From the NCBI RefSeq assembly GCF_046105845.1, contig NZ_CP151004.1: a DNA stretch of 64,000 nt; one strand, 5' to 3'. The notes under the pieces are model-generated. The model saw only the letters and a list, made by a program, of their open reading frames with translations, had not been told where the DNA came from and ran no database searches. Source of the DNA: Escherichia coli. GTDB taxonomy: Bacteria; Pseudomonadota; Gammaproteobacteria; Enterobacterales; Enterobacteriaceae. A program made the position numbers and the translations under genes. Below, in pieces: positions 6,199 to 8,091 of this stretch; position 1 is the first letter of the stretch; the number at the start of each line of letters is the position of its first letter.

Positions 6199-7395
6199 TT
6201 ACAGAAATGGTAAAGAAGGCATAACTCCCCGTGAAATACTGGCTAAGAAGCCTTTATCTGGTTGTTCTTCTTTATTGATTAAAGGAAGGTCATCCAAATC
6301 GCCCAGCAAATACGTATTTTTTGCCTGCCAGTCAATCATCCATATTTTCAACAGTGGATAAGCCAGACCGCCCGTAATCCCGGATATCACCACCAACGCA
6401 CACATGCGATAAAGCATACCGTGGTACGTTAAAGTTGAGCGAAAACGAATACGCCCATCATTCAGTGACAGGTTGCTCATAAAATGGTTTCGCAACGACA
6501 CCGTTAAATAACTGGTGCTAACAGCAATCCCAAAATAATAGATTAACTGCGCGATTATCATTTTACGTTGCATTTCCATAAATTGCTGTAAATTCTCAAT
6601 GTCATCATTTGCATATACAGAACTATCATACGCATTTAATATTTGATCGAAGATAATATAACCAGCAACAGCGAGAAAAGGCAATAAAGCTAAAAATGCG
6701 AGAATGGCATATTTTATACAATACGTAGTATCTAATTTCACCTTGAAACGATGTATACCGAAACTGGTATTGCTCCAGAGAAAACTCATTACCAGACTAT
6801 ATAAAGTACCATTAAAAATACCAATGGAAACAATACCAACTATTGCCATCAGAACCATAGATATAATAACACTACTTGAACTATTGGCATGTAGCATCTT
6901 TGTCGAGATAAAGAAAACAGTCCCCATCCCAACGGCCATTAAAATCGGCAAGAAAAAGGTCACCCACCAGAACCCTTTCATAGAGCAATTAAAACTAAAT
7001 CTTACGCCGTTGAGACTGGTCATCAAGGCCTGATGACGCAGTCCTTTTGCTGCCATAAATATAAGCAAAACCAACAGTAACAAAGTCAAAACACAACCAA
7101 CAAGCGGCATATCTGCTGACACTGTCATTAAGATTGCGAAATAGAAAAAAACAAAAATAAGACAACTAACAAAAACATTCCCACCGGTTATTCCATAAGA
7201 AAATCGTTGTCCGTTAACTTCCATATTAGCATAAAGATAACGCTTACATTTCATTAATGCCCATGGTAAATAGATACCTAGCGTTATAATCGTTAACAAC
7301 ACATTCACCACACAAATAAGAAAATATCTCTCACCTGTACCATGAAAAACAAACGAATGGGACGGAACATCCATTTCATTAATAACTTGAGCCAT
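6199..7395 (-). CDS. yjgN: inner membrane protein YjgN (DUF898 family)
   Basis: Multi-pass hydrophobic ORF, AT-rich; 398-aa form starting MAQVINEMDVPSHSF (ATG 7393-7395); track start 7422 is an in-frame upstream ATG. Confidence 0.8.
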   Translation of the reverse strand: MAQVINEMDVPSHSFVFHGTGERYFLICVVNVLLTIITLGIYLPWALMKCKRYLYANMEVNGQRFSYGITGGNVFVSCLIFVFFYFAILMTVSADMPLVGCVLTLLLLVLLIFMAAKGLRHQALMTSLNGVRFSFNCSMKGFWWVTFFLPILMAVGMGTVFFISTKMLHANSSSSVIISMVLMAIVGIVSIGIFNGTLYSLVMSFLWSNTSFGIHRFKVKLDTTYCIKYAILAFLALLPFLAVAGYIIFDQILNAYDSSVYANDDIENLQQFMEMQRKMIIAQLIYYFGIAVSTSYLTVSLRNHFMSNLSLNDGRIRFRSTLTYHGMLYRMCALVVISGITGGLAYPLLKIWMIDWQAKNTYLLGDLDDLPLINKEEQPDKGFLASISRGVMPSLPFL

Positions 7396-7587
7396 AAAAA
7401 TTCCCTGAATTAAAAAATCCATTGATATAATTTATAGATACAGACAGTAAAATGTTCTGCCACGTTACAATACTCTTATCAGTAATAGGCTGGCAAAAAC
7501 TTTATTGCTTTATAAGACGCTTGCGCACGTAAGAAGAGAGTGGTATTAAACAAATGTATAATTACTTTATTTTTATTGGGTTAAACT

Positions 7588-8091
7588 ATGAATAACATTG
7601 CGCCGCAATCACCTGTAATGCGTCGCCTGACGCTGCAGGATAATCCTGCTATCGCCCGCGTCATTCGTCAGGTATCCGCCGAATACGGTCTTACCGCTGA
7701 TAAAGGCTACACCGTCGCCGATCCGAATCTTGACGAGCTGTATCAAGTGTATAGTCAGCCTGGCCATGCATATTGGGTGGTTGAGTACGAGGGTGAAGTG
7801 GTCGGCGGCGGTGGGATTGCGCCATTAACCGGGAGTGATTCGGACATTTGCGAACTGCAAAAGATGTATTTTCTTCCGGCTATCCGCGGCAAAGGGCTGG
7901 CAAAAAAACTGGCCTTAATGGCGATGGAGCAGGCGCGAGAGATGGGTTTCAAACGCTGCTATCTGGAAACGACCGCTTTTTTAAAGGAAGCCATTGCGCT
8001 TTATGAGCATTTGGGCTTTGAGCATATCGACTATGCGCTTGGCTGCACGGGCCATGTCGATTGTGAAGTGCGGATGTTGCGCGAACTCTAA
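7588..8091 (+). CDS. yjgM: GNAT family N-acetyltransferase YjgM
   Basis: 167-aa ORF with acetyl-CoA binding motif region ([22 protein letters not shown]). Confidence 0.85.

Follow-up and report, generated by a model that had tools for sequence, protein, structure and literature searches.

The stretch of DNA analysed here (the window) comprises 64,000 nucleotides of an Escherichia coli chromosome (contig NZ_CP151004.1, assembly GCF_046105845.1), and carries the genes pepA-holC-valS-yjgN-yjgM-rraB-argI(argF)-yjgL-yjgK in this order. This study concerns yjgN, which encodes a DUF898 membrane protein, and the divergently transcribed yjgM, which encodes a GNAT acetyltransferase, both of which lie between valS and rraB. 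The original prediction for this locus, made from the letters alone, had placed the two genes on either side of a 192-bp spacer, bracketed by a strong bidirectional terminator and by repetitive extragenic palindromic (REP) elements. Its coordinates, gene identities and flanking genes (as in RefSeq E. coli) were all found to be correct, as was the bracketing (Table 1). The region was matched in 5425 of 5426 complete E. coli genomes, with these same annotations.

The open frame of yjgN continues to position 7422, and the start that yields 398 aa is backed by RefSeq and by a Shine-Dalgarno sequence conserved across genera. Against Pfam DUF898 (PF05987) the protein scored 162.6 bits (cut-off 28, E=1.7e-47) over residues 13-369, making it a full-length family member, and YjgM scored 72.4 bits against the GNAT family PF00583 (Acetyltransf_1; cut-off 20.7, E=4.8e-20). 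Only 53 bp separate yjgN from the convergent valS. They hold the terminator hairpin, which is strong in both orientations (dG -24.8 kcal/mol, z=-6, on the plus strand; dG -20.9 on the minus strand), and no M48 peptidase gene lies 3' of yjgN.

Both genes and their spacer had been predicted to be markedly more AT-rich than the flanks. This was borne out for yjgN (GC 37.3%; GC at third codon positions, GC3, 36.7%) and for the spacer (GC 29.2%), but not for yjgM, whose GC of 52.2% and GC3 of 55.7% match the flanking genes (GC/GC3 of 55.2/65.9 for valS, 52.2/58.1 for argI and 48.4/47.8 for rraB). With the 51 non-overlapping open reading frames (ORFs) of the window as reference (mean GC3 0.563, sd 0.089), yjgN deviates in GC3 (z about -2.2) and has a codon-usage distance among the highest (B=0.54), whereas yjgM does not deviate (z about -0.07, B=0.35).

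Table 1. Features of the valS-rraB interval (positions in the window).
Feature	Position	Strand	Description or basis
Terminator hairpin, GC-rich	6165-6190	both	11-bp stem; common to convergent valS and yjgN
AT-rich replacement block, specific to allele A	6195-7638		1444 bp; whole yjgN, divergent promoter spacer and yjgM codons 1-17
yjgN allele A	6199-7395	-	398-aa polytopic inner-membrane protein, DUF898/YjgN family, 'solo' type without M48 partner gene
Shine-Dalgarno sequence of yjgN, AGGGA	just upstream of 7395	-	conserved across genera
Divergent promoter spacer	7396-7587		192 bp, GC 29.2%; between yjgN and yjgM starts
Predicted yjgN promoter	-35 TTGCCA 7496-7491; -10 TATTGT 7472-7467	-	promoter scan
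Predicted yjgM promoter	-35 TTGCGC 7521-7526; TG 7541-7542; -10 TATTAA 7544-7549	+	17-nt spacer; cross-genus alignment
yjgM (= oatA)	7588-8091	+	167-aa GNAT; only codons 1-17 from the putatively imported block
Hairpin right after yjgM stop codon	8094-8122	T-run on -	dG -19, z -5.6 and -3.8; inverted repeat
REP, complete	8152-8180		REP consensus match; same repeat family elsewhere in window
REP, partial, abutting rraB stop codon	8215-8235		repeat comparison

Two alleles of yjgN in one slot

About 15% of the E. coli genomes gave only a partial match to the region. In strain EcPF5 the same slot holds a YjgN of 395 aa with 42% protein identity to that of the window, and the adjoining YjgM is 92% identical to the window's, all differences being N-terminal. 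Searches with each version partitioned the genomes cleanly. Allele A, the form present in this window, in K-12, in O157, in ST131-C and in the ST131 strain JJ1887, was found in 4629 of the 5426 complete genomes (~85%), always at 95% identity or more; allele B was found in 796 (~15%), and the two together account for 5425. The allele B family is deep, with sublineages 8-9% apart. Among the sampled cluster members, those with allele A were all E. coli or Shigella, and those with allele B included a cryptic-clade Escherichia.

Base-level alignment showed that the divergence between the alleles has sharp edges. The two are identical to about position 6194 and diverge from 6195, at the end of the valS terminator, which is identical in sequence between the two alleles and E. 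albertii; they are identical again from 7639, at codon 17 of yjgM. In a sliding comparison the nucleotide identity was about 52-61% inside this block and 95-100% on either side, and from codon 18 onwards A and B strains share 97% identity in yjgM. The block has a GC content of 36.8%, as against 55.6% and 48.3% in its flanks of equal length (1444 bp): AT-richness and hyperdivergence fall on one and the same segment. Divergence in the 3' end of valS (5781-6145) was considered as a footprint of the recombination tract and rejected, as two allele-A strains are also ~6% apart there.

The ratio of non-synonymous to synonymous substitution rates (dN/dS) was 0.14-0.17 in yjgN; yjgM (about 0.05) and rraB (about 0.02) had lower values. 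With values of about 0.15, both YjgN alleles are functional genes under purifying selection. Interruptions of the locus are also on record: in strain SCPM-O-B-7615 yjgN is broken by two copies of the insertion sequence (IS) ISKpn26, and in Shigella sonnei IS21 and IS1 lie between yjgN and yjgM (locus L002, 3886-5763; PMC12795559). Truncated YjgN entries are numerous, and the yjgM of SCPM-O-B-7615 is more divergent, with 83.5% nucleotide identity to the window. The gene yjgN appears to be dispensable.

The A/B split has surfaced, without explanation, in two published pangenome studies. In one, yjgM, tabA and argI were each split into 'two orthologs' that correlated with pks-positive B2 lineages; in the other, yjgN was 'gained' by ST131 clade C. 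The dimorphism of the AT-rich tract is new here. The remaining mentions of yjgN in the literature concern its use as a marker (yjgN::tet), screen tables and transcriptome lists only.

Ancestry of the allele A block

A scan for YjgM among GTDB species representatives gave 80 Enterobacterales loci. Identity of the allele B protein follows the species tree: it is 92% with two further Escherichia representatives at species level, 86% with E. albertii, 65% in a gap-free alignment with Salmonella STM4474 and 56-58% with Citrobacter. The allele A protein is 42% identical to the alleles of other Escherichia, E. albertii, Salmonella and Citrobacter alike, and its nearest relatives, at 62-65% identity, are those of Superficieibacter. 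In a neighbour-joining tree allele A grouped with Superficieibacter (100% bootstrap), and allele B with the alleles of other Escherichia, Salmonella, Citrobacter and Leclercia (100% bootstrap). The gene tree of yjgN is thus incongruent with the species tree, in that B goes with E. albertii and Salmonella and A does not. By this phylogeny, allele B appears to be the vertically inherited Escherichia/Salmonella ortholog and allele A a xenolog. The GC3 of allele A (0.37) also lies well under that of all other yjgN genes examined (0.42-0.75).

No tRNA was found at the block, no flanking direct repeats at 6195-7638, and no integrase, transposase ORF or IS element within 6000-8300; the block does not have the make-up of a classical genomic island. 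A mobile vector for yjgN was also considered and rejected, since the matches obtained by tblastn against plasmids and phages proved to be mislabelled chromosomal fragments, such as a 94-kb 'plasmid' carrying valS, pepA and lptF.

We consider it probable that the AT-rich DNA is a 1.44-kb xenologous replacement at 6195-7638, that yjgM is native, and that common ancestry of the layout, and no proven functional unity, accounts for the two genes being neighbours. The donor of allele A would be an enterobacterium so far unsampled, and its route of entry homologous recombination, with the left crossover in the conserved valS terminator and the right one in a conserved yjgM stretch encoding DNPAIA. 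Crossovers at these two places imply that the donor had the same valS-yjgN-yjgM layout. Allele A would later have spread through E. coli by recombination. The earlier suggestion of horizontally acquired DNA is hence likely to hold for yjgN and the spacer, in view of the anomalous GC3, the sharp edges, the 42%-identical alternative in 15% of genomes and the grouping with Superficieibacter; it does not extend to yjgM, with its native composition and its presence in all 80 Enterobacterales loci.

Xenologous displacement at a conserved slot is known from O-antigen and capsule loci. The likeness lies in the conserved flanks as recombination arms, the deeply divergent alternative alleles, the AT-rich insert and the listing of H-NS at the promoter. 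However, O-antigen and capsule loci are multigene surface-polysaccharide clusters, whereas the yjgN block is a single gene, and unlike them the yjgN slot has only two major allele families and no mobility genes.

The promoter spacer belongs to the replaced block. Alignment across genera, both E. coli alleles included, revealed a conserved yjgM promoter block (CTTGCRC...GTGGTATTAAA) and a conserved -10 element of yjgN, and the former is likely to serve yjgM as a separate, conserved sigma-70 promoter of the extended -10 type. In a published table from genomic SELEX (systematic evolution of ligands by exponential enrichment; PMC3946193) the yjgM/yjgN spacer carries divergent constitutive RpoD (sigma-70) promoters with H-NS, and going by these data the AT-rich promoter and gene of allele A may be bound and damped by H-NS. 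A palindrome, CCAGT-N(7-10)-ACTGG, is conserved in the presumed yjgN 5' untranslated region of B-type (EcPF5, locus L001, about 4420-4450) and Citrobacter spacers, whereas allele A has no more than a degenerate form; the palindrome might act as an operator or form an RNA hairpin. An Rfam search of the spacer and flanks returned sub-threshold noise only and no known RNA, the weak naRNA4 match being the REP.

Partners of YjgN and YjgM

YjgM aligned with Salmonella OatA over 167/167 residues at 80% identity. Salmonella oatA sits at the same valS-yjgN-yjgM-...-rraB-argI locus, and yjgM was found next to the valS position in every one of the 80 Enterobacterales loci. By these findings yjgM is the ortholog of Salmonella oatA and a native core gene. 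OatA of Salmonella enterica (formerly YjgM) N-acetylates O-acetylserine to N,O-diacetylserine using acetyl-CoA, needed no membrane partner for this activity, and on overexpression raises transcription of the cysteine (CysB) regulon (PMC6277577). The activity was shown for the Salmonella enzyme only, E. coli YjgM, which shares its locus and GNAT fold, being assigned by orthology; unlike Salmonella OatA, the YjgM of this window would owe its first 17 codons to the imported block. Overexpressed E. coli YjgM gave an acetyl-lysine band (PMC6199490).

Compared with yjgM, yjgN has a patchy distribution. It was present in 27 of the 78 evaluable loci; in 44, valS directly abuts yjgM, and in seven the slot is filled by other DNA or genes. 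Such cargo includes DUF3289 and DUF943 in Lelliottia (L031, 3407-4770) and, in Dickeya and Edwardsiella, stretches of several kb with other genes (L058, L072, L081). From its contents, the valS-yjgM slot looks like a recurrent variable site.

Outside the Enterobacterales, the DUF898 gene was followed by a Peptidase_M48 gene, overlapping or within a few bases, at all eight loci sampled (Sinorhizobium, Pseudohongiellaceae, Flavobacterium, Oleispira and four contigs from genomes or metagenomes whose taxonomy is not stated), and most of the eight partner genes also encode an N-terminal DUF7092 domain. The operon was also seen in nine Enterobacterales, and yjgN with M48 fills the valS-yjgM slot in Rahnella, Pectobacterium, Brenneria, Siccibacter, Entomohabitans and one Enterobacter. 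The partner is a membrane-anchored zinc protease with one transmembrane (TM) helix and an HExxH motif. Solo and M48-coupled YjgN proteins formed two clades (100% bootstrap each); E. coli YjgN falls in the solo clade and shares ~25% identity with the M48-coupled proteins. Elsewhere, then, DUF898 is consistently partnered by the M48 protease and not by a GNAT enzyme, and E. coli yjgN is an orphan. YjgN resembles the DUF898-DUF7092/Peptidase_M48 module, which is widespread in Proteobacteria and Bacteroidota and uncharacterised, in being a full-length DUF898 protein; unlike in the module, E. coli yjgN is followed directly by the valS terminator, with no M48 gene. In the ancestral Enterobacterales arrangement a yjgN-M48 protease operon would have stood divergent from yjgM, and loss of the M48 gene in the Escherichia/Salmonella/Citrobacter lineage would have left the 'solo' YjgN. 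The divergent yjgN-yjgM adjacency is ancestral synteny.

Two further arrangements of DUF898 genes were observed. On the Pseudohongiellaceae contig (L085, 6198-6716) a GNAT gene (Acetyltransf_3) lies 3' of the DUF898-M48 operon on the same strand; DUF898-GNAT proximity was seen in this one of the eight contigs, probably by coincidence. In Phytobacter massiliensis two DUF898 genes lie in tandem (L013, 2245-3555 and 3633-4823) and belong to different subclades of the solo YjgN tree, which suggests two alleles stacked and not a recent duplication.

An AlphaFold 2 model of YjgN (predicted local distance difference test, pLDDT, 86; predicted template modelling score, pTM, 0.82) contains long TM helices together with two short re-entrant helix-turn-helix hairpins, at whose tips lie the most conserved motifs of the family (TLGIYxPWA, residues 38-46, and GLAYP, 343-347). 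A series of beta-hairpins with RFxF-like motifs lies on a K/R-rich face, which is presumably cytoplasmic. Identity between alleles A and B is 55-65% in the re-entrant and beta-hairpin core elements and 17% in the opposite, presumably periplasmic, half. From this model we infer that the functional core of YjgN may face the cytoplasm and may originally have worked with the M48 protease. Our best guess is that YjgN serves as a membrane subunit, for scaffolding or for substrate gating, that remains from the DUF898-M48 module, and that it is not a partner of OatA. YjgN has no cytochrome c domain. One paper labels the membrane domain of the urate oxidase PuuD 'DUF898'; we take that domain to be Pfam DUF989/Urate_ox_N and the label to be presumably a typographical error.

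We also considered a long-lived balanced polymorphism, in which frequency-dependent selection would keep both alleles because YjgN is exploited by an antagonist (as a phage DNA-entry factor, or as a translocation partner in contact-dependent inhibition or for a colicin), the cassette being swapped between lineages. Both alleles are indeed found undisrupted in thousands of genomes and evolve under purifying selection, exchange of the allele has occurred within ST131, almost all of the A-B divergence lies in the modelled periplasm-facing half, and the depth of the B sublineages also fits. However, the modelled periplasmic loops comprise 3-6 residues only and offer little exposed surface, the overall dN/dS of 0.15-0.31 gives no sign of positive selection, and yjgN is often lost or IS-disrupted without obvious cost. 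PADLOC gave no defence-system matches for YjgN A, YjgN B, the M48 partner or YjgL, no phage association was found, and the literature searched held no experimental link of YjgN to a toxin or phage. We regard a balanced polymorphism as quite unlikely. It is doubtful, too, that the valS-yjgM slot is a hot-swappable cassette site with antagonist selection on the periplasm-facing half, and that DUF898 and M48 form an undescribed, widespread membrane proteolysis or signalling module whose orphan subunit in E. coli works independently of the protease.

Several points weigh against a xenologous replacement beside a native and independent yjgM. A database of 5.8 billion proteins held no match to the allele A protein at 65-89% identity, and no closer donor; with no donor above 65% identity, it is phylogeny alone that tells which way and when the allele was transferred. 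That phylogeny is a simple neighbour-joining tree on Poisson-corrected distances, and E. fergusonii lay outside the sample. H-NS binding at the spacer is taken from an in-vitro SELEX table and not from chromatin immunoprecipitation, and what we propose as the biochemical role of YjgN is conjectural. In nearly every species examined yjgN lies below the GC of its flanks, so that its AT-richness is in part intrinsic to a hydrophobic, weakly constrained protein. Finally, all 27 Enterobacterales loci that carry yjgN have it as the divergent neighbour of yjgM, the spacer measuring about 190-195 bp in several genera, and for this reason some regulatory or functional link between the two is possible.

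The low GC of yjgN across species would also be expected without any horizontal transfer, if yjgN were a vertically inherited, fast-evolving gene whose AT-richness came from hydrophobic composition and weak codon selection. Its GC3 is near the host value in several species (L020, L039, L054, L070), it has about three times the dN/dS of yjgM, and YjgN identities between genera are low everywhere (25-65%). Against vertical descent stand the coexistence, within one species, of alleles only 42% identical between flanks of 95-100% identity with base-sharp edges, the closer grouping of allele A with Superficieibacter than with conspecific B or E. albertii at full bootstrap support, and a GC3 in allele A below the range of other yjgN genes. 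We hold such an explanation to be extremely improbable.

The constant adjacency could likewise reflect joint acquisition of yjgN and yjgM as a two-gene unit cooperating in the modification or export of a small molecule. The genes are divergent neighbours with a common spacer, the imported block takes in the yjgM promoter and 17 yjgM codons, and the OatA substrate O-acetylserine is a small exported metabolite precursor. However, the GC and GC3 of yjgM are native, it occurs in 80/80 loci and abuts valS without yjgN in 44, it is nearly the same in A and B strains beyond the block, DUF898 is partnered elsewhere by an M48 protease (8/8), and OatA is active without a membrane partner (PMC6277577). 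Joint acquisition is largely refuted, and we consider it very improbable. The functional coupling put forward by the original prediction is not supported and does not withstand the co-conservation check proposed with it, as yjgM occurs without yjgN in at least 44 species and the M48 protease takes the place proposed for the GNAT enzyme; from the distribution of the pair, it is adjacency that stands (27/27) and co-presence that does not (80/80 against 27/78). We therefore retain the replacement of yjgN beside a native yjgM as the probable history of this locus.

Neighbouring DNA and implications

Downstream of yjgM, the second hairpin of Table 1 is likely, from its sequence, to be a terminator for rraB, and possibly for yjgM too. 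The REP-bearing yjgM-rraB spacer (8092-8234) is 143 bp long here and in EcPF5-like strains and 45 bp in CV839-06, a difference that underlies the '95% coverage, 2 pieces' pattern of most E. coli matches.

Further along, yjgL (9873-11699, minus strand; 608 aa) is even more AT-rich than yjgN (GC 32%, GC3 31%), and has no Pfam, NCBIfam or PADLOC family match. It contains an 18-bp tandem repeat (10895-11144, 13.9 copies) encoding hexapeptides of the LNNLQK/LNNSQE type. It is frameshifted in JJ1887 and SCEC020007, and EcPF5, a B2-type strain, lacks it, a yhcH/tabA-like gene and arcA coming directly after argF there. The adjoining 3' end of argI (9369-9800) shows 72-88% identity between the window and EcPF5, with 97-100% just upstream. 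This divergence is separable from the yjgN allele, because SCEC020007 joins a B-type yjgN with a yjgL-type neighbour. Elsewhere in the window, four other ORFs combine low GC3 (0.32-0.41) with a high codon-usage distance (48465-49373, minus; 61406-62197, plus; 12421-13011, minus; 13927-14319, plus), and are candidates for further foreign or H-NS-type DNA.

If allele A is a xenolog, the 'yjgN' of K-12 would not be the ortholog of the 'yjgN' of Salmonella or of B2-type E. coli. Functional data, pangenome gain/loss calls and ortholog tables that treat the A and B genes as one, or as unrelated, would then be misleading. The gene yjgM is to be read as oatA, probably a native modulator of the cysteine regulon, and not as foreign DNA. 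Besides the dimorphism, what appears to be new here is the strict linkage of DUF898 to an M48 protease, which would offer the first tangible lead to what this family, uncharacterised and without a solved structural relative, does.

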